Shown here one piece after another: positions 1-64,000 of a DNA stretch of 64,000 bases (position 1 is the stretch's first letter; the number at the start of each line of letters is the position of its first letter). Origin of the DNA: Parcubacteria group bacterium Gr01-1014_17 (GTDB lineage: Bacteria; Patescibacteriota; Minisyncoccia; Phycocordibacterales; UBA10002); NCBI GenBank assembly GCA_007376285.1, contig VMFZ01000005.1, positions 699-64,698 of the forward strand, given 5' to 3'. The notes beneath the pieces are model-generated. The model did no database searches. It was not told the DNA's origin and saw only the letters and a list, made by a program, of their open reading frames with translations. Both the position numbers and the translations under genes were made by a program.

Positions 1-647
1 GGTTTTGTCGCGACCACAACTTTTACAGGTAAGTCGCGCACGGCGTCAAAAAGAGTTTTATAGTCGCGCCCTAAGTCGCGGCCGACGGATAGAATATACA
101 GCACCCGATGTTGGTCGGCGGCAAACATCGGGTGCAGGAAAGATTTCGCATCAATTCCAATATGGCGAAACACAATTTTTTCTGGAGCAATGCCGGCGTC
201 AATAAGCGGCTGTATTTGCGCGCGTGCGGTACAGACGATAACATCTAAACCCTCAATTGCTTTTTTATTGAACCAATGTAAAAACCCGCGCGGGTGGCGA
301 TGGAGCGCATTTGCAAGGTAAGTGTTGTAAATTACGAACCGCGGCTTTTTCCAGCGCAGGATTTTTTTTGCGAGAAATACGAGCGGGAGTCCTGCGCAGA
401 GAAACACGATGTCGTATTTTTTGATGGCGAAAATGTAGGGAAGATGAACAAGATTGAAAGAAACACGGCGCAAAAACTCCGGCAAACACCACTCAATAAA
501 CTCGGCATTTATGCCGAATTTTTTCATATAATTCAAGCCAAGCAGTTGGGTGTCTGGTACAAGCCCAAGCTTCCATTTTTCATAGAATGCCTTGCGTGAC
601 CCAGCGTATATATAAAGTACGCGAATGCGCTTAGGAATGTTGTTCAT
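1..647 (-). CDS. Glycosyltransferase family 1 (GT4), N-terminal ~215 aa; 3' end lies outside the window
   Basis: Continuous minus-strand frame from the ATG at ~647 to the window edge (MNNIPKRIRVLYIYAG...VLYILSVGRDLGRDYKTLFDAV). It is absent from the ORF track because no stop codon lies in the window. GT4-type N-domain followed by the start of the C-domain (VGRxxxxK-like). Confidence 0.55.
   Translation of the reverse strand, partial: MNNIPKRIRVLYIYAGSRKAFYEKWKLGLVPDTQLLGLNYMKKFGINAEFIEWCLPEFLRRVSFNLVHLPYIFAIKKYDIVFLCAGLPLVFLAKKILRWKKPRFVIYNTYLANALHRHPRGFLHWFNKKAIEGLDVIVCTARAQIQPLIDAGIAPEKIVFRHIGIDAKSFLHPMFAADQHRVLYILSVGRDLGRDYKTLFDAVRDLPVKVVVATK
103..135. repeat. 33 bp perfect palindromic element (11 bp stem CACCCGATGTT, 11 nt loop) inside the GT4 coding sequence, in-frame
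   Basis: CACCCGATGTT-GGTCGGCGGCA-AACATCGGGTG read directly. Its length is a multiple of 3 and it is translated as HPMFAADQHRV in the minus-strand gene. The stem is the same as in the terminators near 53.24 kb and 61.93 kb. Confidence 0.5.
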
Positions 648-724
648 AATTGGCTATTATATAACGAAGTCGCCTCTACTTTCGTTGCAAAAACATACAA
701 TATGAAATTTGTTATAATCGCACA

Positions 725-2917
725 ATGTATAAATTTCTGACCGGACTTCCAATAACAGTTCGCTATTTGATTGCCGGAGGCACATCTACGGCAATTGACC
801 TCGTGATTCTGTATATACTCACAGAGTTTTTCGGATGGTGGTATCTTGCGTCGGCCACTGTAGCGTTTGTGGTGGCGGTTGTCGTTAGTTTCGTCTTGCA
901 AAAGTTTTATACATTCAACAACAGCGACATATCGCAAAAAACAGTCGCCGCACAAAGCACTCTCTACCTTGCGCTTCAAATTACCAATATCGGTATTAAC
1001 ACCATGCTTATGTATGCGCTCGTTGAATGGGCGGGCGTGTGGTATTTTTTTGCGCAAATTATCGCCGCCGCCGCTATCGCCGTTGAAAGTTTCTTTGTGT
1101 ATCGTTTTATCATATTTCACACAACAGCGCCTCTAGCGCATCGCGCGGCACAGGCAGTTGCTGTGCTCCGCTTTCACCACGTGGCTCTCTCGGTAGCTGT
1201 TGTTGTATCTCTTTTGTACGGACTGCACCATTTTTTAATGCCGCAATTTATGCCTGAGGGTTTTGTGTACAAGCCCATTACTTACGAGTCCGACCATGAT
1301 GCTGGCGGATACTACGGACCGCGTGCAAACGCTTTTTTTTCGCGCAACCAACTGGATTCCCCATCTTTTCTTCCTATTCTTAACCCGCTGATTATTGGTG
1401 GTCTTGGCAAGTTACTCGGAAGTATGGAACGGGCATATATTGTTTCTGATTTTCTGTTTCCGCCGCTTATTTTTCTTGCGGTATACGCGCTCGCGCGTGA
1501 GATACTATATCGCCGTCTTCCCTCACTCATCCTCGCTTCGATTTTTATTGTCTCACCGCTTGTCGCGCTTTTTATACCGCCTTTCAACGCGGCAACTCTG
1601 CATAATTTTTTCACAGAGTGGTTTCCAGCTTTCAGAGAGCCCGCGCTTCTACATTTCTCCAGTTTTGAATATCCAAAAATCACCTTTTTGTTTTATGTCT
1701 GTGCTTTGTTTTTTATTTTCCGCGCGGTTGCGCGCGGCGGAAGAAAAAATATATTACTTGCAGGTCTTTTCTTTGGGTCGCTATTTTACACTTATTTGTA
1801 CGATTGGGCGTATATAACTGTCTCGCTTTTCATTATGTTGGTTTGGTTTGCATTGCGGCGAGAATGGAACACGGCGAAATCATGCGCTGGTATTTTCGGT
1901 ATTGGCGCGCTTGTTTCTATTCCGTATTGGCTTAACTTTGCGGCGTTGCGCCGCTTGCCGCAGTATCAAGACATCATCTTCCGCATCGGCGGACTTGAGG
2001 TTGGGCGAAGCTTTCGGTTTTCGTCGGTATGGAAAACCTACGCTCGGCATATTGTATGGATTGGAGCGCTTGCCGTCACTTCGCTTAGACGCATCCCTCG
2101 CGCTGTGATTTTCCTGATAGCGTTGCTTGCCGCGTATTTTGTTGTGGTGAATGTACAGGCGGTACTTGGTTTTTCACCACAGCCGGACCATTGGTATCGC
2201 GAGACCTTTCTTCCAGTACTGCTTTCTCTTGGTGTAGTCGGCGTGTGGACATGGGATCGTTTTCTTTCTGCGCGCATTTCCAGAAAAACAGTGCGCATCT
2301 CCTGTTCTATCTTTTTAGTTTTGTTTTTCGCACAGGCGTTTTACATGCAATATTCACTCAGTCGCAACGATTCGGTCGTGTGGGGCGTGGAACGCCGATA
2401 CGCTGATGCATACGCGTGGCTTGCGGAACATACAGAAGCCGATTCTGTAGTTGGAAGTATAAGCGAAGCAACCAACCGCGACATTTTGCTGTTCTCGCAT
2501 AACTCTCTGTTTTTGCCGAGCGGAGGTACAACTCTTATGTCCAATGAGGAGATTTGGCAACGGTTTTATGTGCTCGCTCTTGCGTGGGAATGGTCGCCGG
2601 AGCAACTGAGCAATTTTGTGCAGAAAAACTCGTACTACTTTTTTCAAGATTATTACCGCTCGAGCGCGATTGACAGTTATTTTAAGACCACACATCTACA
2701 GCTGATTCCGGAAGATGAGTTAGCAATCCACATGTCCGAGTTCGTGGAAACGCAGCAAGATAGCACGCACTCAATACAGTACAGGTTGGATTATCTTTTT
2801 GTTGGACCGCGTGAAGAGGCAATTCTGCGGGTACCAGCATCTTTTGCAAAATTGCCGCTTGCTTATAACGCTGATGGCGTGAGAATATACAGAATAAACC
2901 ATGAAAGAAAGAGATGA
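725..2917 (+). CDS. GtrA-like domain fused to a multi-pass GT-C-fold membrane glycosyltransferase (ArnT/PMT-like) with a C-terminal extracytoplasmic domain
   Basis: 730 aa. The N-terminus (LIAGGTSTAIDLVILYILTEFFGWWYLASATVAFVVAVVVSFVLQKFYTFN) matches the GtrA family. It is followed by more than 10 predicted TM helices and a ~170 aa soluble tail. The adjacent gene is a GtrB-like GT2. Confidence 0.5.
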   Translation: MYKFLTGLPITVRYLIAGGTSTAIDLVILYILTEFFGWWYLASATVAFVVAVVVSFVLQKFYTFNNSDISQKTVAAQSTLYLALQITNIGINTMLMYALVEWAGVWYFFAQIIAAAAIAVESFFVYRFIIFHTTAPLAHRAAQAVAVLRFHHVALSVAVVVSLLYGLHHFLMPQFMPEGFVYKPITYESDHDAGGYYGPRANAFFSRNQLDSPSFLPILNPLIIGGLGKLLGSMERAYIVSDFLFPPLIFLAVYALAREILYRRLPSLILASIFIVSPLVALFIPPFNAATLHNFFTEWFPAFREPALLHFSSFEYPKITFLFYVCALFFIFRAVARGGRKNILLAGLFFGSLFYTYLYDWAYITVSLFIMLVWFALRREWNTAKSCAGIFGIGALVSIPYWLNFAALRRLPQYQDIIFRIGGLEVGRSFRFSSVWKTYARHIVWIGALAVTSLRRIPRAVIFLIALLAAYFVVVNVQAVLGFSPQPDHWYRETFLPVLLSLGVVGVWTWDRFLSARISRKTVRISCSIFLVLFFAQAFYMQYSLSRNDSVVWGVERRYADAYAWLAEHTEADSVVGSISEATNRDILLFSHNSLFLPSGGTTLMSNEEIWQRFYVLALAWEWSPEQLSNFVQKNSYYFFQDYYRSSAIDSYFKTTHLQLIPEDELAIHMSEFVETQQDSTHSIQYRLDYLFVGPREEAILRVPASFAKLPLAYNADGVRIYRINHERKR

Positions 2918-3677
2918 TATTGTCGTGTCGGTCATTATTCCGCTGTACAATGAAGAGCAGCGTTTACATAAAACTTTCGCAGCGATTGAACAGTTCGGAT
3001 TTACACATGGCGTCCATCCTTTTGAAATTGTGTTTGTTGACGACGGTAGCCGCGATGCGACCGTCAAATTAGTGCGTGCATTCATAGCTAATTTTCTCGG
3101 GGCTCGACTCGTCTCACATCCGAAGAATTTAGGAAAAGGTGCGGCAGTACGCACAGGAATGCTTGCGGCGCGCGGAGCGTGGCGGCTTTTTGCGGATGCC
3201 GACATGGCGACCGACCTTAGTGAGTTTCGAAAGTTTATTCCGTTTTTCTCATCTGGCGCACCCGTTATTATCGGTAGTCGCCGTATTTACGGGGCAGAAG
3301 TACTCGTACATCAGTCGCGGTTACGCGAAATAATGGGCGGGGTCTATACGATGCTCGCTAATTTTTTTACCGGTGCCAGCGTGTCCGATTTTACTTGTGG
3401 GTTCAAGTGTTTCCGTGCAGATGCCGCGCACGCAATTTTCTCGCGCTCGCGAATTGCGCGGTGGAGTTATGATGCGGAAATTCTTTTTTTAGCTCACCGT
3501 CTTGGGTTTGCCATTCAAGAAGTCCCGGTGTTGTGGAGAAACGACGGTGCGACGCGCGTCCGGCTGTGGAAAGACGCGCCGCGCGCGTTTTTTGACCTAC
3601 TTCTTTTGCGCGTATATACGGCGATTGGGCGATATAGATTAGGCGCAGTAGAACATATTAGTCGCAATATATCTTGA
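2901..3677 (+). CDS. GT2 polyprenyl-phosphate sugar synthase (Dpm1/GtrB/Alg5-like)
   Basis: VIIPLYNEE...VFVDDGSRDAT...GKGAAVRTG...ADADMATD motifs typical of the GT2 dolichyl/undecaprenyl-phosphate glycosyltransferases. Its start overlaps the preceding GT-C gene. Confidence 0.7.
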   Translation: MKERDDIVVSVIIPLYNEEQRLHKTFAAIEQFGFTHGVHPFEIVFVDDGSRDATVKLVRAFIANFLGARLVSHPKNLGKGAAVRTGMLAARGAWRLFADADMATDLSEFRKFIPFFSSGAPVIIGSRRIYGAEVLVHQSRLREIMGGVYTMLANFFTGASVSDFTCGFKCFRADAAHAIFSRSRIARWSYDAEILFLAHRLGFAIQEVPVLWRNDGATRVRLWKDAPRAFFDLLLLRVYTAIGRYRLGAVEHISRNIS

Positions 3678-3699
3678 TGCATAGGGGTTTTAAGTATAT

Positions 3700-5901
3700 A
3701 TGCGGCTTCTGTTTATTACACAAGCGATTGATGAACGCGACCCTGTGCTCGGGTTTGTGTGTGGGTGGCTTCGCGCGTTTGCTATAGAATTTGAGCATAT
3801 ATCGTCAGTGTGTTTGCGAAAGGGCGGGTATGATTTACCGAAGAATGTATCAGTACATTCTCTCAAAGAGGGCGCCAAACAAACCGAACCAGATGTTGAT
3901 AGGCGGCAAACATCTGGTTCGGTTTCTCGACTGAGATATGTATTGCGTTTTTTGCGCTTTGTATGGCGCACACGTAATGAATACGACGCGGTGTTCGTGC
4001 ATATGAATCAGGAATATATCTTGCTTGCGGGTGTTTTGTGGCGATTGCTCGGAAAACCTGTGGCGCTTTGGTATAACCATACTGCGGGCGGAGTGTGGAC
4101 AAAAATTGCAATTCGCCTTGCGACCGTTGTATTTCACACCTCGCCATACGCGTTTACGGCTGGAACTAAAAAATCAATCCGTATGCCTGCCGGAATTAAT
4201 ACTCAACTTTTCTCTCTTGTTCATGAAATACAGAGGACACAGCATTCAATTTTATATTTAGGAAGAATCGCGCCGATTAAGGGAATAAGGGAAATAGTAC
4301 AGGCGGCTTTAATACTACGCGAACGCAATGAAGATTTTTCTTTAACGATATGCGGAGATGCGCTTCCGCGCGATGCGGCGTACGAAAAAGAAGTTCACGC
4401 GCTCGCGGAGCCGCTCGCGCGGAAGGGGAAGTGTCGTTTTTTGAATGCAATACCAAACTCTGATGCCCCGAACATTTTTTCAGCGCATGAGATTTTTGTA
4501 AACCTCACTCCTTCGGGCAATTACGATAAAACTGTGCTTGAGGCAGCGGCATGCGGCGCAATCCCCATCGTTTCATCGTCCGCGTTCCGCGATGCCTTTC
4601 CGCATGAATTGTTTTTTGAAGAACGAAATCCACAGTCGCTTGCGGATGCGATTGAACGGGTATTTGCACTATCGGACAAAAGAAAAGAAGAAATTAAAAC
4701 ACCACTAAGAAAATATGTCATAGAGACGCACGATTTGAGTTTACTGGTGAAGAAAGTGAAAAAAGTTCTTTCCGCTAAGCGTGTTTATTATGTTGCAAAC
4801 GCTCGCATACCGACAGAAAAGGCGCACGGGATTCAAATTGCAAAAATGAGCGAGGCGCTCCGCAAAATCGGCGCGGCTCTGACGCTTGTCGTTCCACGCC
4901 GTGGGAAGAAAGTGTTGCTCAAAGATTTCTACAATCTTACGGAAGAGGTTCCGCTCATCCGTCTACCATCATTCCCATACCGCGCGAGCTTTCTGCTCGG
5001 CTCACTTTCTTTTATGATTTCTGCGTTTCTGTTTCTTCTTGCGCGGAAAATCCGAGGAGAAAAATTTTTGGTGTACACCATAGATATGGATCAATTCTCT
5101 TTTTCGCTTATTCCGTTTTTGCGGGTGCCGTACTTTGTGGAGATTCACGACGCGAAACGACGCGGAATCTTGTTTCAACGGCTATTCAATCGCGCACAAG
5201 GCATTTTGACGATAAATAACATTATTAAAAATAAATTATGCGCGCGGTTTGTGATGCCGAGCGAAAAAGTGCTCGTTGCACCGAATGGTATTTCCGAAGA
5301 ATTTTTTAAAGCGAGAAATATCAGTGCGGATAAAGCGCGTGCCGTGCTCAATCTTCCGCTTAACAGAAAAATTGCGCTCTACGCAGGACAGTTTTACGCA
5401 TGGAAGGGTTTGGAAATCTTGGCGGAAGCGGCGCGCCGCGCGCCGGCAATTATATTTTACCTTGCGGGTGGGACGCGCGAAGCGTTTGAGCGCATCACCG
5501 ACATCCGCGATATTCCGGCAAATATATTGTTTGGCGGGGTGCGCCCTTATACAGAAATGCCGCTTCTCATGCGCGCGTCCGACGCACTTATCGTGCTCGG
5601 CACTAAACGCGATGAGTATTCATATTTTCACACATCGCCGATGAAACTATTTGAGTATTTGCCAGTCGGAAGACCGATTGTCGCGGCACGGACTCCAGCG
5701 ATTGTTGATATGGTTTCTGAAAAGGAGGTCTTTTTTTACGAACCAGACAATGCAGAAAGTATGGCTCAAGTGACGATGGAAGCTATATGCAATAAAACTT
5801 CCGCCAATGAAAAGGTCTCCGTGGCGCGCAAACTTGCGGAAAAATATACATGGAAAACCCGCGCCGAAGCCGTTCTTACGCTATTGGTGAATGCTGTATA
5901 A
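3700..5901 (+). CDS. Tandem double-domain glycosyltransferase (two GT4/GT-B modules, 733 aa)
   Basis: Two successive GT1-family domains, each with an EAAACG-like or LFEYLPVGRPIV-like C-terminal nucleotide-sugar binding motif (LEAAACGAIPIV at ~aa 280; KLFEYLPVGRPIVAA at ~aa 650). Confidence 0.65.
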   Translation: MRLLFITQAIDERDPVLGFVCGWLRAFAIEFEHISSVCLRKGGYDLPKNVSVHSLKEGAKQTEPDVDRRQTSGSVSRLRYVLRFLRFVWRTRNEYDAVFVHMNQEYILLAGVLWRLLGKPVALWYNHTAGGVWTKIAIRLATVVFHTSPYAFTAGTKKSIRMPAGINTQLFSLVHEIQRTQHSILYLGRIAPIKGIREIVQAALILRERNEDFSLTICGDALPRDAAYEKEVHALAEPLARKGKCRFLNAIPNSDAPNIFSAHEIFVNLTPSGNYDKTVLEAAACGAIPIVSSSAFRDAFPHELFFEERNPQSLADAIERVFALSDKRKEEIKTPLRKYVIETHDLSLLVKKVKKVLSAKRVYYVANARIPTEKAHGIQIAKMSEALRKIGAALTLVVPRRGKKVLLKDFYNLTEEVPLIRLPSFPYRASFLLGSLSFMISAFLFLLARKIRGEKFLVYTIDMDQFSFSLIPFLRVPYFVEIHDAKRRGILFQRLFNRAQGILTINNIIKNKLCARFVMPSEKVLVAPNGISEEFFKARNISADKARAVLNLPLNRKIALYAGQFYAWKGLEILAEAARRAPAIIFYLAGGTREAFERITDIRDIPANILFGGVRPYTEMPLLMRASDALIVLGTKRDEYSYFHTSPMKLFEYLPVGRPIVAARTPAIVDMVSEKEVFFYEPDNAESMAQVTMEAICNKTSANEKVSVARKLAEKYTWKTRAEAVLTLLVNAV
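3884..3922. repeat. 39 bp palindromic element (14 bp stem, 11 nt loop) inserted in-frame in the tandem-GT4 gene
   Basis: CCGAACCAGATGTT-GATAGGCGGCA-AACATCTGGTTCGG. It shares the GATGTT...GGCGGCA...AACATC core with the element at 103-135, and its length is a multiple of 3. It encodes EPDVDRRQTSGSV inside the N-terminal GT domain. Confidence 0.5.
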
Positions 5902-5908
5902 TCATCCT

Positions 5909-6580
5909 ATGAAGTCTTTACTTGGAATTGCGGATTTTTTTGGACTTACAAAAAAGATCATTCGCACGCGAATAGATGCTTTTTTGCAGAAACACGCGAC
6001 AAACGAGCGGACGCTTGATGTGGGGGGAGGTTCTGGGCCGTACAAAAAGTATTTTCCTAACCGCGTGTGCATTGATAACGAGGCGGGCGAGGGGGTTGAT
6101 TTCGTTGGCGACGCCCACGATTTATCGCGCTTCCGTGACGGAGAGTTTGAGTGCGTTCTTTGTACTGAAGTGTTGGAACACTTGCATACGCCGCAGAAAG
6201 CGATTGATGAAATGCGGCGAGTACTTAAACCTGGAGGCACCATCATTTTGACCACCCGTTTTATTTTTCCACTCCACAACATTCCTGGCGACTATTTCCG
6301 CTTTACACGCTACGGTCTCGCACATCTTTTTCGCGATTGGACGAAAGTAGAAATAAAAGAAGAAGGCACAACGATGGAGGCACTTGCGGTATTATCTGAA
6401 CGGATTGGATTCCAGACGGAAACATTTTGGACAAAATGGCTGTCTGTTGACTGGCTTATTTTGGCGAAAATTATCCCGTGGTTTTCATTTTTGATTACCA
6501 AGGAATACGGCGAGGTGGGACGCAAAAATGAAACAAAAAGTATTTTAACGAGCGGATATTTCGTGATTGCGAGAAAGTAG
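5909..6580 (+). CDS. Class I SAM-dependent methyltransferase (Methyltransf_11-like)
   Basis: LDVGGGSGPY...CTEVLEHL...LKPGGTIILTT motifs. The ORF track starts at 5891; ATG 5909 is preferred because the upstream gene stops at 5901. Confidence 0.6.
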   Translation: MKSLLGIADFFGLTKKIIRTRIDAFLQKHATNERTLDVGGGSGPYKKYFPNRVCIDNEAGEGVDFVGDAHDLSRFRDGEFECVLCTEVLEHLHTPQKAIDEMRRVLKPGGTIILTTRFIFPLHNIPGDYFRFTRYGLAHLFRDWTKVEIKEEGTTMEALAVLSERIGFQTETFWTKWLSVDWLILAKIIPWFSFLITKEYGEVGRKNETKSILTSGYFVIARK

Positions 6581-10643: not shown

Positions 10644-10709
10644 GATGCAGATAGATTGAAAAGTCGCCTCATCGGCGACTCGCCGAAGAGGCGAGAAAGG
10701 TCTTTGATT

Positions 10710-53235: not shown

Positions 53236-53272
53236 AGCACCCGATGTCTGCAAAACATCGGGTGTTTTTTAT
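53236..53272 (+). terminator. Rho-independent terminator (CACCCGATGT-CTGCAAA-ACATCGGGTG followed by TTTTTT)
   Basis: A 10 bp stem with a T6 tract after the sqdB stop. The stem is the same as in the in-frame palindromes at 103-135 and 3884-3922. Confidence 0.65.
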
Positions 53273-53288
53273 AAGTTATACTGTCTGT

Positions 53289-55506: not shown

Positions 55507-55581
55507 TTTTCGTAAAGGCGCTTCATTACGGGGCGCCTATTTTTTTGGAATATGTTGTCCTGTGTTAGTGTTATAGCAATT

Positions 55582-58330: not shown

Positions 58331-58429
58331 GCGGTTGGTCTTTCTGTTTGAGGTTTTTTGTAAAGGTTCTTTTCCGGTAGTATTCTCACATAACTTTTCT
58401 TGTTTCGCAAGTGTTCTATAATTCACCAT
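58331..58429. promoter_or_regulatory. Divergent promoter region between the class B radical SAM gene (-) and the NeuB-family gene (+)
   Basis: ~100 bp AT-rich spacer between divergent ATGs. No motif verified. Confidence 0.3.
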
Positions 58430-59443
58430 ATGAATAAGAATTCTGTATTTATAATTTGCGAGGCAGGCGTAACAAATTACGGCGATTTTAACATCGCAAA
58501 AAAGCAAATTGATGCCGCGGTTGCCGCACAGGCGGATGCGGTAAAGTTTCAACTCTGGCGCACCGAAGATTTGGTGTCCAAAAAAGTCGCCAAGAAATAC
58601 CAGAAAGAATTGGGTTACGACTGGTTCGCGCGGCTCAAATATAAAGAGCTTGCGCCTCGAGAAATAAAAGCATTGCAGGCATATGCAAAAGAGAAACATA
58701 TTTTGTTTTTTGCGACGGCACATGATGTGGCAAGTTTGGAATATTTGGACAAAGAATTGCATGTGCCGTTTTTCAAAGTCGGTTCCGGTGAAGCTGGAAA
58801 TATTGATTTTCTCAAAAATGTCGGTAAGCGCAGAAAACCTGTTTTTATTTCCTTTGGTTTTCACACGGATGCGGAAGCGCGCAAAGCGATGCGCGTACTG
58901 AAAAAGTCCGGCGCGCCGAGAGTTATTCCGCTCCATTGCGTTACGGTGTATCCGACTCCGTTTAACCAAGTTAATCTTCTTCGTATTGGTTGGTTTCGCC
59001 GCGCGTTCGGCATTGCTGGTTTTTCCGACCATAGCGTCGGCCGCGCTGCGTGCCTCGCGGCGGTTGCGCGCGGCGCGTCAGTGATTGAAAAACATTTGAC
59101 TTTTGACAAAAAGGACCCGCGTTCGCTGGACAATCCAGGCGCGCTTTTGCCGGATGAATTTGTCGCGCTGGTGCGCGAGGTTCGAGACATTGAAAGTGCA
59201 TTGCGTGTTCCTTCTTCTGTCGCCCTTCAAAAAGCGCGCGCAAAAGCGCGCGCGTGGGCCGAGCAGGCGATTGTTGCGGCGCGAGACATTGCGGCTGGAG
59301 AAAAAGTCACTCGCGCGATGCTTGCGTTCAAACGGCCTGCGAAAGGCGGTGTTTCGTCAAACGAAATTGGCACCGTACTAGGAAAAAACGCAAGAGTTGC
59401 GATACCTGCAGATGAACAGGTACTTCTGAAAGATCTATCATAA
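58430..59443 (+). CDS. neuB: N-acylneuraminate (nonulosonic acid) synthase, NeuB family with C-terminal SAF domain
   Basis: FIICEAGVTNYGD...AVKFQ...FKVGSGE NeuB motifs and a C-terminal SAF/antifreeze-like domain. Substrate specificity (Neu5Ac, Leg, Pse or Kdn) cannot be read from the sequence. Confidence 0.7.
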   Translation: MNKNSVFIICEAGVTNYGDFNIAKKQIDAAVAAQADAVKFQLWRTEDLVSKKVAKKYQKELGYDWFARLKYKELAPREIKALQAYAKEKHILFFATAHDVASLEYLDKELHVPFFKVGSGEAGNIDFLKNVGKRRKPVFISFGFHTDAEARKAMRVLKKSGAPRVIPLHCVTVYPTPFNQVNLLRIGWFRRAFGIAGFSDHSVGRAACLAAVARGASVIEKHLTFDKKDPRSLDNPGALLPDEFVALVREVRDIESALRVPSSVALQKARAKARAWAEQAIVAARDIAAGEKVTRAMLAFKRPAKGGVSSNEIGTVLGKNARVAIPADEQVLLKDLS

Positions 59444-59486: not shown

Positions 59487-61025
59487 ATGCACACGCCGGA
59501 CACTTCCAAATTTAATTTTGACGGGCTTTTTACTCTTGAGATGGCGAACAACCATCAAGGGTCTTTAGAGCATGGCAAGCGCATTATCCGCGAAGCGGCA
59601 GCGGCGGTCAAAGAATCTGGTGTTCGCGCCGCGGTAAAACTCCAACTCCGCGACCTTGACTCATTCATTCACCCTGCATTCCGCGAGCGAAAAGATGTAA
59701 AACATATTCCGCGTTTTCTTTCCGCCCGCCTCGGGCGGGATGAGTTCCGCGAACTCGTAGAAGAAACGCGCCGGCATGGGCTCTATACTATGGCGACCCC
59801 GTTTGACGAGCCATCTGTGGATTTTCTAAATTCGCTCGGTGTGGAGATTGTAAAAGTCGCGAGTTGCAGCGCGCAGGATTGGCCGCTTTTGGAAAAGATT
59901 GCTGGGGCAGGGAAGCCGGTCATTGTGTCTGTCGGCGGGCTGTCGGTAAAAGAGGTGGATAAAGTGGTTTCGTTTTTTGAGCATCGCGGCGTGCACTTTG
60001 CATTGATGCATTGCGTGGCGCTCTACCCAACACCTTCGGACAAATTCTCGCTTGGCTATCTTGACGCAATGAAGAGCCGTTACCCGCATTTGACTATCGG
60101 GTTTTCAACGCATGAAGCGCCGTCCGACACTTCTACTATTGGGCTTGCGTACGCAAAGGGCGCACGAATTTTTGAGAAACACATAGGCGTGCCGACCGAT
60201 ACGATTACGCTCAATGCGTACTCCGCAAATCCGCAGGAACTGCGTTTGTGGTTCGCGGCGTATCAGAATGCAGCCACTGCGTGCGGCGGAAGCGGGCGTC
60301 CTGTTACAGAAGCAGAGCGCGCTGATTTACAGTCGTTGAAGCGTTGCGTGTTTGCGAAAGTGCCTATTCGTGCAGGAGAGAAGATTTCGCGCGAGCATGT
60401 GTTTTTTGCTATGCCGCTTGTTTTACCCGAACATTTAACGAGCGGCGAGTTTCGCGTCGGTGCTGTTGCCGACCGCGACTATGCGGAAGGTGAGGCGCTT
60501 TCTGGCAAACTCGCACCGCGCGGTTTTTCAAAACAGGAAACCATTTCCGAAGCTGTGCGCGAAGCAAAGGGAATGCTTAATTTTGCGAAGATTCCACTCT
60601 CGCACGATTTTACCGTTGAAGTGTCACATCATTACGGCTTGGAGCGGTTTAAGGAAGTCGGTTGCATTATTATTGATTGCATAAACCGCGAATATGCGCG
60701 CAAGCTTGTGGTGCAATTTCCGGGACAGTACCATCCGGTGCATTACCACAAAGTGAAAGATGAAAGCTTTCATGTGCTCTCAGGTACTGTGGAGATGGAC
60801 GTGGAAGGGAAGAAGAAGGTGCTTATGCCCGGCGACACTTTGTGGATGCCGCGCGGCGTGTGGCACGGATTTCGCACTGATACAGGCGTCGTGTTTGAAG
60901 AGATATCAACAACTTCACTGGAAACGCAGGGCGATTCGTACTACATAGATAAGAGCATTTCCGCTATGCCGCGCGAAGCGCGCAAAACCAAGCTCTTGAA
61001 CTGGGGGCGGCATCAGTTTGACTAA
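59487..61025 (+). CDS. Second NeuB-family synthase with an extra C-terminal cupin domain (512 aa)
   Basis: FTLEMANNHQGSLEHG...VKLQ...VKVASCS NeuB core and a SAF domain. A ~100 aa C-terminal cupin follows (QYHPVHYHKVKDESFHVLSGTVEM...WMPRGVWHGF). Confidence 0.6.
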   Translation: MHTPDTSKFNFDGLFTLEMANNHQGSLEHGKRIIREAAAAVKESGVRAAVKLQLRDLDSFIHPAFRERKDVKHIPRFLSARLGRDEFRELVEETRRHGLYTMATPFDEPSVDFLNSLGVEIVKVASCSAQDWPLLEKIAGAGKPVIVSVGGLSVKEVDKVVSFFEHRGVHFALMHCVALYPTPSDKFSLGYLDAMKSRYPHLTIGFSTHEAPSDTSTIGLAYAKGARIFEKHIGVPTDTITLNAYSANPQELRLWFAAYQNAATACGGSGRPVTEAERADLQSLKRCVFAKVPIRAGEKISREHVFFAMPLVLPEHLTSGEFRVGAVADRDYAEGEALSGKLAPRGFSKQETISEAVREAKGMLNFAKIPLSHDFTVEVSHHYGLERFKEVGCIIIDCINREYARKLVVQFPGQYHPVHYHKVKDESFHVLSGTVEMDVEGKKKVLMPGDTLWMPRGVWHGFRTDTGVVFEEISTTSLETQGDSYYIDKSISAMPREARKTKLLNWGRHQFD

Positions 61026-61174: not shown

Positions 61175-61831
61175 ATGCACAAAAAATTAGTAGTGGTCTT
61201 TGATTTTGACGGCGTACTCACGGTTGGCGGCGAAGGGTTGAAGCAAAAAGCGTGGGACATTCTTGCGTTGCCGCTTCATCAAGAAAATGCAAATTTGCTC
61301 TATAAAAAGCGAGAGGAATTCTCTGGCGGCAAGGGCTCTCGGAACGATATTCTCCGTGAGACATTCGCAGAGTTCTATCCCCCATACAATGTGGGTCTTC
61401 TCACCGCCGGTTACGCCGACTGTTACAACACAATTGTGCATAAACTGTTGGAGCAATCCGGAATGCCAGAGGGGACGGAACAGACGCTTGCGACTCTCGC
61501 GAAGTTTTGCACTCTGTTTGTGAATTCTGCGACGCCGGAAAAAGCGGTACGGGAATCGGTGCAGAACTTCAACATTGTGCAACACTTCCGCGGCATCTTC
61601 GGCCAGCCGATTTCCAAAGTGGACAATCTTGCTCGTGCCCAGCATCTGACACAAGTTGACAGAGAGTTTATACTCTTTGTAGGCGACAGCGATGGAGATG
61701 CCAAAGCCGCAAAAGAGTTTGGGTGCGATTTCGTGGGGGTCGCAAATGATTGGAACAAGTGGACAAAGGAGACCGTCAAGTTTCCGCTTGTTGGTTCCAT
61801 AGCCGAACTTCCGAAATTGCTGGAAACATAA
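61175..61831 (+). CDS. HAD-superfamily hydrolase (candidate sugar-phosphate phosphatase, e.g. nonulosonate-9-P phosphatase)
   Basis: VVVFDFDGVLT motif I and FVGDSDGD motif IV. Flanked on both sides by the 87 bp element. Confidence 0.6.
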   Translation: MHKKLVVVFDFDGVLTVGGEGLKQKAWDILALPLHQENANLLYKKREEFSGGKGSRNDILRETFAEFYPPYNVGLLTAGYADCYNTIVHKLLEQSGMPEGTEQTLATLAKFCTLFVNSATPEKAVRESVQNFNIVQHFRGIFGQPISKVDNLARAQHLTQVDREFILFVGDSDGDAKAAKEFGCDFVGVANDWNKWTKETVKFPLVGSIAELPKLLET

Positions 61832-61920: not shown

Positions 61921-61960
61921 TAACACCCGATGAAAATCGGGTGTTTTCTTTTGTTTCTTT
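61921..61960 (+). terminator. Rho-independent terminator (ACACCCGAT-GAAA-ATCGGGTGT followed by a T-rich tract)
   Basis: Hairpin with a T-tract immediately after repeat copy 2. Same CACCCGAT stem family as the other palindromes. Confidence 0.6.
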
Positions 61961-61989
61961 TTTCCTCCCTCTGTGGTTATATAATTCGT

Positions 61990-62712
61990 ATGAAGATTTA
62001 CGCCATTATTCCTGCGCGGGGCGGCTCAAAAGGCGTGCCTGGGAAAAATGTGAAGGACTTATGCGGCAAGCCGCTTATTGCGTGGACAATTGAAGCCGCG
62101 AAAAAAGTTCCGGAGATTTCTCGTGTCATTGTGAATACCGATGACGTAGATATTGCGGAGGCGGCAAAAAAGTATGGCGCGGAAGTCTTTCACCGACCGA
62201 AGAAATTGGCGCAAGACCTCACACTGGATTTGCCGGTTTTTGAACATCATTTGCGCGCGCTTGAAGCGGATGGGGACTTGCCAGACATAGTTGTTGACAT
62301 TCGCGCGACTGCGCCGCTTCGGCGCAGTGCGCGAATTGCGGAGGGGATTGCTCTTCTGAAACGGCTCGGGCGCGCCCGCGCGGACTCTGTTCGCGCGGTG
62401 TCAAAAGCAAGCAAGCATCCGTACAAAATGTGGCGGTTTCAAGGAGAACACATTGAGCCGTTTTTACCGGAAGCGCATACGGGAATGAAAGAGCCATACA
62501 ACGCGCCGCGCCAGATTTTGCCGGATGTGTTTCAAAACAATGGTTGTGTTAACATATTTTGGCCCGAGACGATTTTGGAGAAAAAATCAATGACTGGAGA
62601 AAAAATTGCCGGGTTTGTGATGGATGAGTGGGAGTCGGTGAATATCGACCACCCGATTGATTTTTTTGTAGCGGAACATTTAATGCGCGCACATCGCGAA
62701 AAATTCTTATGA
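61990..62712 (+). CDS. Second acylneuraminate cytidylyltransferase-family protein (CMP-sugar synthetase)
   Basis: MKIYAIIPARGGSKGVPGKN N-terminal signature. The track start at 61930 lies in the terminator, so ATG 61990 is preferred. Confidence 0.7.
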   Translation: MKIYAIIPARGGSKGVPGKNVKDLCGKPLIAWTIEAAKKVPEISRVIVNTDDVDIAEAAKKYGAEVFHRPKKLAQDLTLDLPVFEHHLRALEADGDLPDIVVDIRATAPLRRSARIAEGIALLKRLGRARADSVRAVSKASKHPYKMWRFQGEHIEPFLPEAHTGMKEPYNAPRQILPDVFQNNGCVNIFWPETILEKKSMTGEKIAGFVMDEWESVNIDHPIDFFVAEHLMRAHREKFL

Positions 62713-63779
62713 AAGTGAAAATCATAGGAGCGGGGTCAATAGGGAATCACTTGACGCAGGCGTGCCGGCGGATGGGGTGGAGCGTGTGCATTGTAGATGC
62801 AGACCCAAAGGCGCTTCTGCGGATGAAGAATGAGATTTATCCGACTCGCTACGGAGCGTGGGACAGTGCGATTAAACAATATACGCTAGATGAGGCGCCG
62901 AGCGGCGGTTTTGACATTATTATGGTCGGGACGCCGCCGCATGTTCGGATGGCGGTGGCGCTTGAAATGCTTGCAGAAAAGCCGAAAATACTTCAGTTGG
63001 AAAAGCCATTATGCGCGCCGTTTGATAAAAATCTGCGGAAGTTTGTTACGGCGTATAAAAAACAAAAAACTACAAAAGTAATCGTCGGATATGACCATTC
63101 GGTTGCGAAGGCAATGCATCGTGTCGCTGAATTGATTGCAAGCGGCATTACCGGAGAGGTGAAAACAATTGATGTTGAGTTTCGGGAACATTGGGAAGGA
63201 ATCTTCAAGGCGCACCCATGGCTCAAGGGTCCGCAGGATACCTATTTGGGATATTGGAAAAAGGGCGGCGGGGCAAGCGGAGAGAACTCTCACGCGCTTC
63301 ATTTGTGGCAGTATCTGGCGCGTATTTCCGGGTTTGGCGTATGGAAGAAAATGTCGGCGGCGATGAAAATGGAAAAAGATGGAAAAGTAGAATACGATTC
63401 TCTCTCTGCGTTTTTGTTTGAAACAGATACGGGAAAAGTCGGGCGCGTGATTCAAGATGTCGTCACAAAGCCGACGCGCAAGTGGGCGCGGCTTCAGGGT
63501 GTAGATGGTTTTATTGAGTGGATATGCAACGGCGTTCCTGGCGGCGACCTTGTGAGATATGCCGGCGCGGATGGCGTGGTGAAAGAAGAGATATTTGAAA
63601 AGAAACGACCAGATGACTTTTATCAAGAGACGCTCCATATCGCGGGTTTACTGTCCGGCAAAATCCACTTTGCAGATTCACCTCTTTCATTTGAAAGCGC
63701 GCTATCGGTGATGTCGGTTTTGGAGACCGCGTGGAGAAACAACAAAACGCAACTTGCGTATATCCGCAAGGTATGTTAG
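62709..63779 (+). CDS. Gfo/Idh/MocA-like NAD(P)-binding oxidoreductase
   Basis: MKVKIIGAGSIGNHL Rossmann N-terminus and an EKP motif region. Confidence 0.5.
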   Translation: MKVKIIGAGSIGNHLTQACRRMGWSVCIVDADPKALLRMKNEIYPTRYGAWDSAIKQYTLDEAPSGGFDIIMVGTPPHVRMAVALEMLAEKPKILQLEKPLCAPFDKNLRKFVTAYKKQKTTKVIVGYDHSVAKAMHRVAELIASGITGEVKTIDVEFREHWEGIFKAHPWLKGPQDTYLGYWKKGGGASGENSHALHLWQYLARISGFGVWKKMSAAMKMEKDGKVEYDSLSAFLFETDTGKVGRVIQDVVTKPTRKWARLQGVDGFIEWICNGVPGGDLVRYAGADGVVKEEIFEKKRPDDFYQETLHIAGLLSGKIHFADSPLSFESALSVMSVLETAWRNNKTQLAYIRKVC

Positions 63780-63829
63780 TATATTTTCGGAGTTCTAGAA
63801 GGTCTTTCACAATCAAATAGGAGGTCTGA

Positions 63830-64000
63830 ATGCATAAATGGATGAAGTGGACGGTGCTTGAAGCGGCGTCCAAAACGGTAGTGCGTTTGTTGCAGAAAGT
63901 TCTAGGAGACGCAACGACAACACTCGGCGGTGTCAGCGCGGTTATCTTCTTAACCGGTTTTGTACAGCTCGTGATGGGTCTTTTCGGTCTATTGTCCAAG
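63830..64000 (+). CDS. Hypothetical protein, 5' portion only (runs off the window end); possibly membrane-associated
   Basis: AGGAGG RBS 7 bp upstream of the ATG. Hydrophobic stretch VSAVIFLTGFVQLVMGLFGLL. Confidence 0.3.
   Translation, partial: MHKWMKWTVLEAASKTVVRLLQKVLGDATTTLGGVSAVIFLTGFVQLVMGLFGLLSK

Follow-up and report, generated by a model that had tools for sequence, protein, structure and literature searches.

Does a long run of sugar genes in a tiny genome specify one elaborate glycan or several? The question is raised by the DNA analysed here (the window, 64,000 nucleotides), which lies on a 65,147-bp metagenome-assembled contig of Parcubacteria group bacterium Gr01-1014_17, an ultrasmall, uncultivated groundwater member of the CPR. 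All non-nested ORFs of at least 100 aa were compared with Pfam and/or NCBIfam profiles, and about 56 of the 62 credible genes received a carbohydrate or glycan family, covering sugar activation, tailoring, glycosyl/phospho-transfer and export. The initial annotation, made from the letters alone, had described a contiguous, unusually rich locus with nearly every gene glycan-related, and both descriptions were borne out. The window has genes for six sugar nucleotidyltransferases, for the pathways leading up to them and for tailoring enzymes, as well as for 13-14 glycosyl/phospho-transferases (GT4, GT2, two GT9, five TagF/TarL-like GT-B, plus one or two membrane enzymes of GT-C type); most genes are co-oriented and closely packed. 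The mean total of CAZy genes in freshwater CPR genomes is about 15 (PMC9166423), so this transferase density is well above background. Judged from sequence, nearly the entire 64 kb is a single real, conserved gene cluster for cell-surface sugar synthesis and decoration. The window is likely to be a cell-envelope glycan island of modular build, producing a teichoic-acid-like polymer and protein O-glycosylation rather than one glycan. A literature search found no description of the locus, in keeping with the earlier view that the surface glycan is probably undescribed, and no mention of nonulosonic acids in CPR. For so small a genome the locus is a large outlay, and it includes several sugar pathways that are so far undescribed.

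The contig is metagenome-assembled and its composition dips locally at 32-34 kb and 36-38 kb, as might be expected of a chimeric or mis-binned assembly of unrelated glycan loci. However, the 4-mer profile of every 8 kb segment agrees with the rest of the window (r 0.94-0.97), and the dips fall on a Thr/Ser-rich gene and on a small cassette that is itself conserved. An independent contig (L001) is identical over 17.2-28.8 kb, and synteny extends over 1-20 kb in L002, L003, L008 and L129, over 29-51 kb in L006 and L007, and over 50.7-63.8 kb in L052. Independent assemblies thus jointly reproduce the gene order over about 1-64 kb, five of them together covering all joins. Even composition and this synteny argue against a chimera, named at the outset as a possible flaw, which we regard as extremely improbable. 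In L129 the left border consists of housekeeping genes (S6, SSB, S18, EF-P, RecA, FtsK), and the locus is therefore chromosomal.

The left end contains transferases and a first pair of GT2 and membrane protein:

3-647, minus: GT4 glycosyltransferase, N-terminal part, gene continuing past the left end (Pfam Glyco_transf_4)
725-2917, plus: GtrA domain joined to an 11-TM protein that has a soluble tail (about 190 aa) (GtrA_DPMS_TM, 68.7 bits; 11 hydrophobic segments)
2901-3677, plus: GT2, polyprenyl-phosphate-sugar-synthase-like (Glycos_transf_2, 100 bits)
3700-5901, plus: double GT4/GT1 glycosyltransferase (Pfam)
5891-6580, plus: class I methyltransferase (Pfam)
6545-7732, minus: GT9 (Pfam)

The GtrA fusion and its GT2, kept together in L002 and L008, are a candidate lipid-linked extracytoplasmic glycosylation system; the C-terminal part of the fusion stays unclassified, matching neither PDB or NCBIfam entries nor the A5 profile. 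L002 and L010 have homologs of the GT4 at this position, and the gene order of 3700-7732 is kept in L002, L008, L010 and L129.

Several activated sugars would be made first, in the cytoplasm. Most tailoring enzymes score far below NCBIfam equivalog cutoffs, and sugar identities are therefore guesses. The first activation module reads:

7789-8655, plus: RpiB–HldC-like nucleotidyltransferase fusion (best PDB matches 5x9q, cytidylyltransferase-family, and RpiB; nearest rfaE domain II)
8627-9565, plus: HldA-like PfkB kinase (full-length best PDB match HldA, 4e84)
9540-10643, plus: PMI-like bicupin fused to an AfhF-like HAD phosphatase (best PDB match 9iqw, AfhF)
10656-11384, plus: AraD-like class II epimerase/aldolase (profile search)
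11458-12198, plus: FSA/transaldolase-like (profile search)

These genes lie side by side in about 25 loci from other genomes, roughly half of which have a GT9 at most 10 kb away; a Tal-cupin fusion occurs in relative P0356, and the bicupin and HAD architecture is seen in an AF2 model (pLDDT 90). Two nucleotide-heptose routes had been annotated. The likeness holds at family level, but all scores are under the equivalog cutoffs (HldE domain I 151 against 345, domain II 134 against 181; HddA 142 against 600, HddC 138 against 300) and no GmhA/SIS gene occurs in the window. The second supposed route, weakly HddA/HddC-like, reduces to a generic pair of GHMP kinase and pyrophosphorylase, and the first to a non-canonical HldA/HldC-like module whose sugar is predicted. 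Compared with the ADP-L-glycero-beta-D-manno-heptose pathway (GmhA, HldE or HldA + HldC, GmhB, HldD; GT9), the locus shares a kinase nearest HldA, a nucleotidyltransferase nearest HldC/HldE domain II, a HAD phosphatase, two GT9 genes and the same kinase, phosphatase, nucleotidyltransferase logic. It differs in having no clear HldD, in the bicupin, RpiB domain, transaldolase-like and AraD-like enzymes present instead, in the novel RpiB–nucleotidyltransferase and bicupin–HAD fusions, and in the organism's having no LPS context. The module might supply an ADP-heptose-like sugar, with the transaldolase-like enzyme and PMI-like bicupin (plus RpiB and the AraD-like enzyme) replacing GmhA. A pentofuranose or octose could be the alternative product, because the HAD domain is nearest, among characterised proteins, to the sugar-1,5-bisphosphate phosphatase AfhF (31% identity to 9iqw), which acts on the pentose D-arabinose-1,5-bisphosphate and not on a heptose, and the RpiB domain scores above the equivalog cutoff for R5P isomerase. 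Phage UDP-Araf synthesis follows the same kinase, phosphatase, nucleotidyltransferase logic (PMC13326640). Both the phage UDP-D-arabinofuranose pathway (arabinose-5-P isomerase, AfhE kinase/pyrophosphorylase, AfhF) and the lincomycin GDP-octose pathway (LmbR, N, P, K, O) proceed, as the module would, from sugar-n-phosphate through 1,n-bisphosphate and 1-phosphate to NDP-sugar, and the dedicated transaldolase parallels LmbR (reaction in PMC5854111). Unlike the module's PfkB and HldC-like enzymes, they use APH-like or GHMP kinases with NTP_transferase, and their isomerases belong to other families.

The next block is devoted to tailoring:

12229-12945, plus: TylF-type O-methyltransferase (Pfam)
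12978-14363, plus: TagF-like paralog 1 (Pfam and paralogy comparison)
14360-15274, plus: FkbM methyltransferase (Pfam)
15240-15848, plus: class I methyltransferase (Pfam)
15751-16572, minus: NTP transferase
16595-17341: conserved unknown
17313-18413: SDR
18416-19297: aldo-keto reductase
19307-20560: sugar C-methyltransferase
20557-21459: GDP-fucose-synthase-like SDR
21469-21939: small cupin
21939-22901: GFO/IDH/MocA oxidoreductase
22888-23868, minus: GHMP kinase
23876-24595, minus: NTP transferase
24588-25526, minus: SDR
25633-26559: E1 alpha
26556-27491: E1 beta
27488-28252: FabG-like ketoreductase
28293-29267, minus: radical SAM-SPASM
29228-29800, minus: RmlC-like epimerase
29885-30766, minus: methyltransferase
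30731-31690, plus: GT2 glycosyltransferase (Pfam, 111 bits; kept in L006, L007)

On its gene content, 15751-30766 is a predicted NDP-sugar tailoring module. Profile searches recovered the previously noted E1 alpha/beta pair (25633-27491), both radical SAM enzymes (the SPASM type here and a B12-binding type at 56348-58330) and, where at least eight methyltransferases had been counted, eight SAM methyltransferases (starts 5891, 12229, 14360, 15240, 19307, 29885, 42503, 44212). The module may produce one or two NDP-deoxy/branched sugars bearing a C-methyl group and a two-carbon branch of AviB1/B2 type, followed by keto-reduction; the AviB1/B2 E1-like pair with its ketoreductase is a precedent for installing such a branch (PMC4753412). 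As in the AviB1/AviB2 systems (Pau11/Pau12; C-4 acetyl branches on deoxysugars, then Pau7), a ketoreductase directly follows the E1 pair, and an AKR, a sugar C-methyltransferase and NDP-sugar SDRs share the block. However, the likeness is one of gene set and order, the pair lies in an envelope locus of a non-actinomycete, and both it and the SPASM gene are missing in L007. Since the best-known examples of AviB1/B2-type E1 pairs, TylC3-type C-methyltransferases, TylF-type O-methyltransferases and KedN5-like B12 radical-SAM enzymes come from actinomycete pathways for antibiotic sugars, the stretch of about 15.7-30.8 kb might instead be a cluster for a glycosylated small molecule. We judge this improbable: profile searches found no PKS, NRPS, terpene or aglycone genes throughout the 64 kb, the block is flanked by glycosyltransferase and export genes and syntenic with envelope-type genes in relatives, and bacterial O-antigens, too, can contain C-4 branched octoses (PMC4753412).

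Assembly and export of an envelope polymer can be assigned to the following genes:

38064-39428, plus: TagF-like paralog 2
39425-40762, plus: TagF-like paralog 3
40773-42566, plus: carbamoyltransferase (both Pfam domains, confirming the first call)
42503-43201, plus: methyltransferase
43214-44215, plus: D-2-hydroxyacid dehydrogenase
44212-45030, plus: FkbM methyltransferase
45034-46389, plus: TagF-like paralog 4
46386-47588, plus: GT9
about 47608-49353, plus: MsbA/HepA/PglK-type ABC exporter
49350-50705, plus: TagF-like paralog 5

The GT-B enzymes (GT4, GT9, TagF-like) would assemble a heavily O-methylated, carbamoylated polymer on a polyprenyl carrier, partly phosphodiester-linked and resembling a teichoic acid or secondary cell-wall polymer; the ABC exporter would flip or export it, and outside the membrane two GT2 and GT-C systems would add further sugars from polyprenyl-phosphate donors. 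Gram-positive tag/tar and secondary cell-wall polymer loci likewise combine TagF/TarL-like GT-B enzymes with cytoplasmic assembly followed by ABC export, GtcA/CsbB/YfhO-type three-component systems combine GtrA-family, GT2 and polytopic membrane GT proteins, and the organism has a peptidoglycan-anchored wall protein. In contrast to tag/tar, the five TagF-like paralogs form a divergent, CPR-specific family (PF04464 match confined to the C-terminal part; TarL PDB profile match E only 0.011), export falls to a fused MsbA/PglK-type half-transporter rather than to TagGH, and the sugar repertoire is far richer. No TagO, TagA, TagD or LCP genes, no other initiating phosphoglycosyltransferase and no Wzx/Wzy or O-antigen-ligase-type gene occur in the window. 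Two GT9 (heptosyltransferase-family) genes, the MsbA-like exporter and the HldA/HldC-like enzymes would also suit LPS inner core or O-antigen synthesis in a diderm cell. This is very improbable, as the window has no lipid A/Kdo genes (Lpx, KdsA/B, WaaA), the TagF-like enzymes and PG_binding_1 wall protein suit a monoderm-type envelope, and the host is a CPR bacterium, a group generally described as having no LPS biosynthesis. Furthermore, GT9-related bacterial autotransporter heptosyltransferases also heptosylate proteins.

The candidate protein arm of the island lies upstream of these genes and is followed by a low-GC stretch:

31694-33595, minus: secreted/anchored wall protein, fn3/Ig-like and PG_binding_1 (signal/anchor segment, domain profiles)
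33668-35269, plus: 10-TM PMT/PMT_2-like GT-C glycosyltransferase (transitive homology)
35232-36032, plus: GT2 partner of the PMT-like protein (Pfam, 82 bits)
36383-37997, plus: low-GC (0.40) stretch with small ORFs of 100, 263 and 113 aa, no function assigned (profile search)

Protein glycosylation had been thought plausible from an adjacent Ser/Thr-rich surface protein. The wall protein is indeed 43% Ser/Thr in its linker (residues 190-270), and the proposal gains support from the neighbouring GT-C and GT2 genes. The 10-TM protein has no direct Pfam or PDB match; of 47 remote relatives, 25 match PMT_2 and 9 match PMT, and it belongs to a small family, with 374 relatives among 1.84 billion representatives. 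Like PMT/GT39 and PMT_2 systems with a polyprenyl-phosphate-mannose synthase, it is polytopic, has a partner GT2 and adjoins a secreted protein with a Thr/Ser-rich linker; unlike theirs, its sugar and acceptor are predictions. It probably O-glycosylates the wall protein, a candidate substrate in a variable slot. The Ser/Thr-rich and PMT-like genes are not kept in all relatives, which counts against the protein arm: both are missing in L007, and L006 keeps the PMT-like/GT2 pair with a different, Cys-rich secreted protein in place of the wall protein. The 263 and 113 aa ORFs recur elsewhere in the locus in L006 and L007 (81% and 57-60% identity), and by this comparison the pair is a conserved, position-shifting cassette.

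The right end carries the predicted sulfoquinovose and ulosonic-acid genes:

50715-51932, plus: NeuC hydrolysing 2-epimerase (equivalog cutoff passed, 336 against 236)
52005-53231, plus: SQD1-type UDP-sulfoquinovose synthase (full-length homology to plant SQD1)
53244-54191, plus: GalE-like SDR
54179-54871, plus: sugar-1-P nucleotidyltransferase
54922-55506, plus: NUDIX hydrolase
55552-56295, plus: CMP-ulosonic-acid synthetase 1 (CTP_transf_3)
56348-58330, minus: B12-binding radical SAM, KedN5-like C-methyltransferase (the 894-aa ORF is over-extended; likely start ATG at 58330)
58400-59443, plus: NeuB-like synthase 1 (NeuB score 270, cutoff 400)
59487-61025, plus: NeuB-like–cupin fusion (synthase 2), second ulosonic-acid module, as are the next three
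61175-61831, plus: HAD phosphatase
61930-62712, plus: CMP-synthetase 2 (CTP_transf_3)
62709-63779, plus: GFO/IDH/MocA-like oxidoreductase

The annotated UDP-sulfoquinovose synthase is well supported: it matches Arabidopsis SQD1 over its full length (452 bits, E 1.5e-134) and conserves the GTMGEYG Thr and the S-F-Y-H-x-S-K motif (Tyr/His/Lys), although the NF041015 score (423 bits) does not reach the cutoff of 575. It would supply UDP-sulfoquinovose in the cytoplasm. L052 retains the gene order NeuC-SQD1-SDR, and its SQD1 shares 80% identity with the one here. Among SQD1/SqdB/Agl3 systems (plant/cyanobacterial sulfolipid; Sulfolobus N-glycan), agl3 and agl4 are adjacent, the neighbour of agl3 being UDP-glucose-pyrophosphorylase-like, and such a gene is also nearby here; in contrast, the host is a CPR bacterium and no SqdX/SQD2-type lipid glycosyltransferase was identified. 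The suggested comparison with archaeal agl loci is relevant for SQD1 but not beyond it. Both annotated NeuB/NeuA pairs were recovered. NeuC, NeuB and a CMP-synthetase may yield a sialic-acid-like CMP-nonulosonate, possibly C-methylated by the B12 radical-SAM enzyme, and the NeuB-cupin, HAD and CMP-synthetase module a second CMP-ulosonate. No DegT-type aminotransferase occurs in the locus, and pseudaminic or legionaminic acid from this locus alone is therefore unlikely. The resemblance to the sialic acid pathway (NeuC/NeuB/NeuA) lies in NeuC and the paired synthases and CMP-synthetases, and that to the KDN-9-P/Neu5Ac-9-P routes (synthase, phosphatase, CMP-synthetase) in the HAD phosphatase adjoining the second synthase. 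Unlike in these pathways, synthase 1 falls under its cutoff, synthase 2 belongs to an uncharacterised 3g8r-like branch, is cupin-fused and travels with a GFO-type oxidoreductase, and a B12 radical-SAM methyltransferase lies within the module. In 39 metagenome loci of at least 12 kb, the NeuB-cupin gene is accompanied by a CMP-synthetase in 38, a GFO-like gene in 32 and a HAD gene in 18.

These data bear on the opening question, which the initial annotation had implicitly answered with a single elaborate glycan. One extremely elaborate repeat-unit glycan, such as an S-layer or wall-protein O-glycan, would fit the single exporter, the co-oriented, closely packed genes and the long syntenic stretches kept by relatives. 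We consider it unlikely, since the E1 alpha/beta, SPASM, PMT-like and Ser/Thr-rich genes vary between relatives, two distinct GT2 and membrane-GT systems are present, and six nucleotidyltransferases with 13-14 transferases exceed the needs of known single repeat units. Instead, the locus is a mosaic of modules differing in conservation, with cassettes missing or replaced in L007 and L006. It appears to consist of a conserved backbone with swappable cassettes, and therefore probably specifies more than one glycoconjugate. The six nucleotidyltransferases, the exporter, the TagF-like enzymes and the two lipid-linked extracytoplasmic systems likewise suggest several products, and the NeuB-cupin module is found by itself in many other contexts.

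About 56 of the 62 credible genes in the window, all scanned with Pfam and NCBIfam profiles, were assigned to carbohydrate or glycan families, and every component on which the initial annotation had based its picture of a single elaborate glycan locus was recovered at family level in this gene-by-gene check. Eight SAM methyltransferases and 13-14 glycosyl- or phosphotransferases were identified, and tRNA and Rfam scans of the window returned nothing. Freshwater CPR genomes are reported to carry a mean of about 15 CAZy genes altogether (PMC9166423), a total matched by the 13-14 transferases of this contig alone, which indicates that envelope glycans take up much of a very small gene complement.

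Proteins identical to those encoded here are on record for Parcubacteria group bacterium Gr01-1014_17 (locus tags G01um101417_*) on a 65,147-bp contig, so that the window spans nearly all of this contig of a CPR/Patescibacteria MAG. GC content stays between 0.44 and 0.52 across the window with one exception (0.40 at 36-38 kb). In 4-mer composition, every 8 kb segment correlates with the rest of the window at r = 0.94-0.97, the Thr/Ser-rich gene and the low-GC cassette being the only places with local dips. Over 17.2-28.8 kb, the proteins of the window are 100% identical to those of a Logan contig from SRR8863434. In related loci from other assemblies, gene order from GT4/GtrA up to the C-methyltransferase (about 1-20 kb) is retained in L002/L003, L008 and L129 (the RpiB-nucleotidyltransferase fusion of L002/L003 is 71% identical to the window copy), the order of 29-51 kb in L006 and L007 (Parcubacteria GW2011_GWA2_47_21; 79% and 67% identity, respectively, for the homolog of the TagF-like gene 39425), and the order of 50.7-63.8 kb, from NeuC through the GFO-like gene, in L052. 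Even composition and a gene order reproduced in independent assemblies argue strongly against a chimeric assembly, a reading that was rejected. The locus is chromosomal, since the L129 copy starts directly after the genes for ribosomal S6, SSB, S18, EF-P, RecA and FtsK.

The first sugar-activation module (7789-12198) comprises the following five genes:

Fusion of an RpiB domain and an HldC/HldE-II-like nucleotidyltransferase
PfkB kinase, for which the heptose-7-P kinase HldA is the sole PDB relative over the full length
367-aa bicupin and HAD protein (AlphaFold model, pLDDT 90)
AraD-like class II epimerase/aldolase (237 bits, cutoff 257)
FSA/transaldolase-like protein (Tal; family match)

This module had been read as a nucleotide-heptose route and was compared with the ADP-heptose pathway. 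The kinase scored 151.5 bits against TIGR02198 (HldE domain I/HldA; cutoff 345), with HldA 4e84 as its best PDB match over the full length (E 8.5e-16), and the nucleotidyltransferase domain scored 134.5 bits against TIGR02199 (HldE domain II/HldC; cutoff 181.5), with 5x9q, a 'putative cytidylyltransferase', as its best PDB match (91.8 bits). The ORFs scanned in the window include none with a SIS domain, the family of the sedoheptulose-7-P isomerase GmhA, and there is none among the module genes of related loci with Pfam listings. The HAD domain matched no GmhB structure in the PDB search; its nearest structures are AfhF (9iqw, E 8.6e-13; 31% identical), a phage D-arabinose-1,5-bisphosphate phosphatase of the UDP-arabinofuranose pathway (PMC13326640), and 1xpj. 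For the 6-epimerase HldD, the best heptose_epim score among the SDRs of the window was 97 (cutoff 275).

The module is conserved. Across 24 fusion proteins, neither the RpiB catalytic residues nor the HxGH motif varies, and a scan of GTDB species representatives yielded 41 loci, 27 of them with a full-length fusion. PfkB, bicupin(-HAD) and/or Tal lie directly beside the fusion in about 25 of these 27 and in none of the RpiB-only or NT-only loci of the same scan, and a GT9 gene occurs within 10 kb of the module in roughly half of the loci. By annotation or score, the relatives of the bicupin are mannose-6-phosphate-isomerase-like or lyxose-isomerase-like cupins. One of them, a 504-aa protein (P0356), joins TAL_FSA to a lyxose-isomerase-like cupin; this Rosetta-stone link suggests that the cupin isomerase acts on what the transaldolase produces. 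By MAG label, carriers include CPR, Woese-/Pacearchaeota (DPANN), Acidobacteria, Bryobacterales, Lacunisphaera (Verrucomicrobia), Armatimonadetes and one Pelagibacteraceae SAG, with several TPA_asm labels appearing unreliable; the presence of the module under CPR, DPANN, Acidobacteria, Verrucomicrobia and Armatimonadetes labels indicates horizontal spread. Most CPR- and DPANN-labelled versions of the module include the AraD-like gene, which is absent from the Acidobacteria, Verrucomicrobia and Armatimonadetes versions. RpiB and Tal might be merely housekeeping pentose-phosphate enzymes of a reduced genome, a reading weakened by the occurrence of the same Tal-containing module in MAGs labelled Acidobacteria, Verrucomicrobia and Armatimonadetes, groups that are expected to have complete central metabolism; for CPR this reading may still hold.

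The sequence of kinase, phosphatase and nucleotidyltransferase is common to the ADP-heptose, phage UDP-Araf and lincomycin GDP-octose pathways, the last of which opens with a dedicated transaldolase, LmbR, acting on a C3 unit and ribose-5-P (PMC5854111). By our proposal, a dedicated transaldolase would make a ketose phosphate, either sedoheptulose-7-P or, as LmbR does, octulose-8-P, and the PMI-like cupin would turn it into a manno-aldose phosphate. This GmhA-type step is chemically the same reaction as the conversion of F6P to Man-6-P. The aldose phosphate would then be phosphorylated at position 1 by the HldA-like kinase, terminally dephosphorylated by the HAD domain and adenylylated by the HldC-like domain to give an ADP-sugar, which GT9 would transfer to non-LPS acceptors, such as Ser/Thr-rich proteins or wall polymers, in organisms that lack an outer membrane. 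We tentatively put forward, with somewhat less than even confidence, that the module, with the AraD-like protein only in some versions, constitutes an undescribed GmhA-independent route to an ADP-activated higher sugar that is transferred by GT9 to non-LPS acceptors. Our subjective estimate gives a heptose about an even chance of being the product, and a pentofuranose and an octose or other sugar each about half that chance. Apart from the precedents cited here, a literature search for an RpiB/HldE/transaldolase pathway found nothing relevant. Two observations concern the neighbourhood and the gene models. In a Doudnabacteria relative (L004), a split transketolase, a GT2, a DegT-type aminotransferase and an acetolactate-synthase/YerE-like TPP enzyme lie at 16404-20897, about 6 kb downstream of the module; CPR glycan loci may often include ThDP-dependent sugar chemistry. 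Within the window, the TTG start at 9402 over-extends its ORF, for which a start near 9540 is likely.

The second proposed heptose route lies in a tailoring block:

15.7-30.8 kb, around a GHMP kinase/NTP transferase pair: SDRs, RmlC-like epimerase, small cupin, GFO-type oxidoreductase, TylC3-type sugar C-methyltransferase (Methyltransf_13/14), AKR and methyltransferases
Within the same block, E1 alpha/beta pair, followed by a FabG-like ketoreductase and a SPASM radical-SAM enzyme

The GHMP kinase matched HddA (142, cutoff 600) and the NTP transferase HddC (138, cutoff 300) only weakly, and neither GmhA nor GmhB of the GDP-D-glycero-alpha-D-manno-heptose pathway was found in the window, so the assignment of this pair to a nucleotide-heptose route was not sustained. 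The two genes could equally be a sugar-1-kinase and pyrophosphorylase salvage pair, and the nearby 4,6-dehydratase-like SDR, RmlC-like epimerase (128, cutoff 156) and GDP-fucose-synthase-like SDR suit 6-deoxy-heptose and 6-deoxy-hexose tailoring equally well. The pair matched E1_dh, PDH E1 alpha (140 bits) and, weakly, Transket_pyr and Transketolase_C; no E2 or E3 gene is present in the window, and the FabG-like SDR lies immediately downstream of the pair in an NDP-sugar context. E1-like pairs (AviB1/B2, Pau11/12) have been proposed to add a pyruvate-derived C-4 acetyl branch to deoxysugars, which a ketoreductase then converts to hydroxyethyl, and C-4 branched octoses are known in O-antigens too (PMC4753412). 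By analogy, the block may make C-methyl and/or two-carbon-branched deoxysugars. The E1/SPASM cassette is absent from L007 and is thus accessory. A 248-aa protein at 16595-17341 occupies the same position between NTP transferase and SDR in L002 and L129 (56% identity); no family match was found, Pfam at E up to 1 also being empty, and it is probably an unrecognised sugar-tailoring enzyme. The methyltransferase gene at 15240-15848 (+) and the convergent NTP transferase gene at 15751-16572 (-) share 98 nt at their 3' ends; since the domain of the methyltransferase stops near residue 138 of 202, its tail may be a read-through extension.

The right part of the window carries two ulosonic-acid gene sets in one block:

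50.7-63.8 kb, in order: NeuC, SQD1, GalE-like SDR, AglF/GlmU-N-like nucleotidyltransferase, NUDIX hydrolase, CMP-synthetase 1, B12 radical-SAM enzyme, NeuB 1, NeuB 2-cupin fusion, HAD phosphatase, CMP-synthetase 2, GFO-like oxidoreductase

NeuC passed its equivalog cutoff over the full length (TIGR03568, 336.2 bits, cutoff 235.9). NeuB 1 scored 270 (cutoff 399.65) and NeuB 2 145, the CMP-synthetases reached 139 and 126 against PseF (cutoff 205.7), and the Pfam NeuB, SAF and CTP_transf_3 domains all exceeded their gathering thresholds. Synthesis of pseudaminic or legionaminic acid from this locus was rejected as unlikely, because no aminotransferase (DegT/PseC/LegC-type) or acetyltransferase was matched by family in any ORF of the window. 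The set of NeuC, NeuB 1 and a CMP-synthetase is consistent with a product of Neu5Ac type that may be C-methylated. NeuB 2 matched the 3g8r protein (294 bits) far better than bona fide NeuB (85 bits). Its cupin fusion has at least 520 metagenome relatives, and in 39 loci of at least 12 kb it was accompanied by a CMP-synthetase (38/39), a GFO-like gene (32/39) and a HAD gene (18/39). This is a conserved, uncharacterised ulosonic-acid module of a large family whose nearest structure is the unannotated 3g8r, and it may follow a KDN-like route in which the cupin isomerase would supply the sugar phosphate.

The B12 radical-SAM enzyme exceeded the gathering thresholds for B12-binding (34.0 bits, threshold 32.1) and radical SAM (51.2, threshold 29.5), and its best subfamily is that of the KedN5 C-methyltransferases (187, cutoff 700). 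Its mechanically called 894-aa ORF (56348-59032, -) overlaps the NeuB gene at 58400-59443 (+) by about 630 nt; with homology starting at residue 255 and an ATG at 58330 as the likely start, the real gene encodes about 660 aa and is divergent from NeuB. The strongest single call in the window is the SQD1 homolog. It aligned with Arabidopsis SQD1 at 452 bits (E 1.5e-134, query 11-402, SQD1 13-395), its next-best PDB matches reaching only about 40 bits, and it matched NF041015 over the full length at 423 bits, below the cutoff of 575. GGDGYLG, KLGTMGEYG and SFYHASKV lie opposite the same motifs of SQD1, which we take to hold the N-terminal GxxGxxG NAD motif, the catalytic Thr and the Tyr-His-x-x-Lys with its SQD1-specific His. 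Full-length homology and conserved catalytic motifs thus uphold the earlier prediction of a UDP-sulfoquinovose synthase.

As candidates for polymer assembly, the window encodes five TagF-like paralogs (12978, 38064, 39425, 45034 and 49350) of about 450 aa each with mutual identities of 21-34%, nearly all relatives of which in the database search came from Parcubacteria-type MAGs. Three of them matched part of the PF04464 model (38064, 43.4 bits; 39425, 46.9; 49350, 28.9; gathering 22.1); 12978 and 45034 had no Pfam match even at E up to 1 and are paralogs of the other three by BLASTP (E 1e-15 to 1e-48). The paralogs conformed to a TagF/TarL-like GT-B fold, with S168, W169, D170, K175, G211, D216, G248 and R278 invariant and H214 nearly so in the family. 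A PDB sequence search with a single paralog gave no useful match, and a profile of all five gave only a marginal match to TarL (E 0.011); an exact-protein lookup for 45034-46389 returned no record. Interleaved with these genes are a carbamoyltransferase, methyltransferases, a D-2-hydroxyacid dehydrogenase, a second GT9 and a fused TMD-NBD ABC exporter closest to HepA, MsbA and PglK-type transporters, and the order of this assembly and export section is retained in L006 and L007. The carbamoyltransferase exceeded the gathering thresholds for both Carbam_trans_N (129.8 bits) and Carbam_trans_C (234.8 bits), and NodU itself was ruled out (equivalog score 147, cutoff 1000). The TTG start at 47320 over-extends its ORF, whose likely start is near 47608.

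Glycosylation outside the cytoplasm would involve two gene sets, one of them beside a Ser/Thr-rich protein:

31694-33595 (-), Ser/Thr-rich protein with signal/anchor segment, PG_binding_1, Thr/Ser linker and fn3/Ig-like domains
725-3677, GtrA-domain fusion to an 11-TM protein, and a GT2

The linker (residues ~190-270) of the Ser/Thr-rich protein is 43% Thr/Ser, and its divergent neighbour encodes a 10-TM PMT-like protein (33668) that had no Pfam (E up to 1), NCBIfam or useful PDB match. An exhaustive phmmer search of 1.84 billion representative proteins found 374 relatives, and among 47 of them that were scanned, 25 matched PMT_2 and 9 matched PMT; an Asp within a 'PP..D.L.YH' loop motif is invariant. 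The GT2 gene that follows the PMT-like gene is the expected polyprenyl-phosphate-sugar synthase partner. In the other set, the GtrA-fusion protein (725-2917) had no useful PDB match and was not matched by a profile built from the PMT_2-like relatives (A5); its topology and its GT2 and GtrA partners would suit a GT-C enzyme. In L006, the slot of the Ser/Thr-rich gene holds instead a 211-aa protein and a 388-aa Cys-rich secreted protein (2634-4457), and in L007 both the secreted-protein slot and the PMT-like gene are absent; the slot is a variable secreted-protein slot. Protein glycosylation, which had been considered plausible from the Ser/Thr-rich protein, remains plausible and is better supported by the PMT_2/PMT relatives, the GT2 and the Thr/Ser linker; given the differences in L006 and L007, O-glycosylation would be a variable accessory feature of the locus.

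Taken as a whole, the locus resembles in its operation a teichoic-acid or secondary-cell-wall-polymer locus of Gram-positive bacteria, coupled to lipid-linked extracytoplasmic glycosylation. The modules that supply its sugars recall antibiotic deoxysugar pathways as well as capsule, O-antigen and S-layer glycan loci, and the locus belongs to no characterised type; readings as an LPS core locus and as an antibiotic gene cluster were considered and rejected. No initiating phosphoglycosyltransferase, Wzx/Wzy or LCP gene was found in the window. CPR bacteria (Patescibacteria) are ultrasmall with streamlined genomes. Since many are episymbionts that live on host cells, the chemistry of their surface probably plays a central part in their biology. 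Our literature search found no description of this locus, nor of nonulosonic acids or sulfoquinovose in CPR, and on CPR glycans nothing beyond KEGG-level remarks, one of which maps ADP-heptose synthesis to Paceibacteria. The sub-modules deserve experimental follow-up as testable enzymology: a GmhA-free HldA/HldC-type sugar-activation module in several phyla, a widespread NeuB-cupin ulosonic-acid module, an SQD1 homolog from a CPR bacterium, a branched-sugar E1 pair whose setting is a CPR envelope locus instead of an actinomycete antibiotic cluster, and a CPR-specific TagF-like family with five paralogs within one locus. If the proposed activation route is correct, the locus, with the NeuB-cupin/GFO module and the TagF-like family, would encode a glycan class without a characterised counterpart.

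The low-GC cassette (36852-37997, GC 0.40) consists of 263-aa and 113-aa ORFs, which are 81% and 57-60% identical in L006 and L007, where its neighbouring genes are only 45-80% identical. Its position differs in each genome (4985-6111 in L006, 2409-3510 in L007). No Pfam, NCBIfam or PDB match was obtained, Pfam at E up to 1 giving only a chance-level hit for 36852 (E 0.24), and the cassette looks like a mobile or strongly constrained pair. At the right end, a hydrophobic ORF from 63829 (MHKWMKWTVLEAASKT...) exits the window at 64000, and the remaining 1.1 kb of the contig may still belong to the locus.
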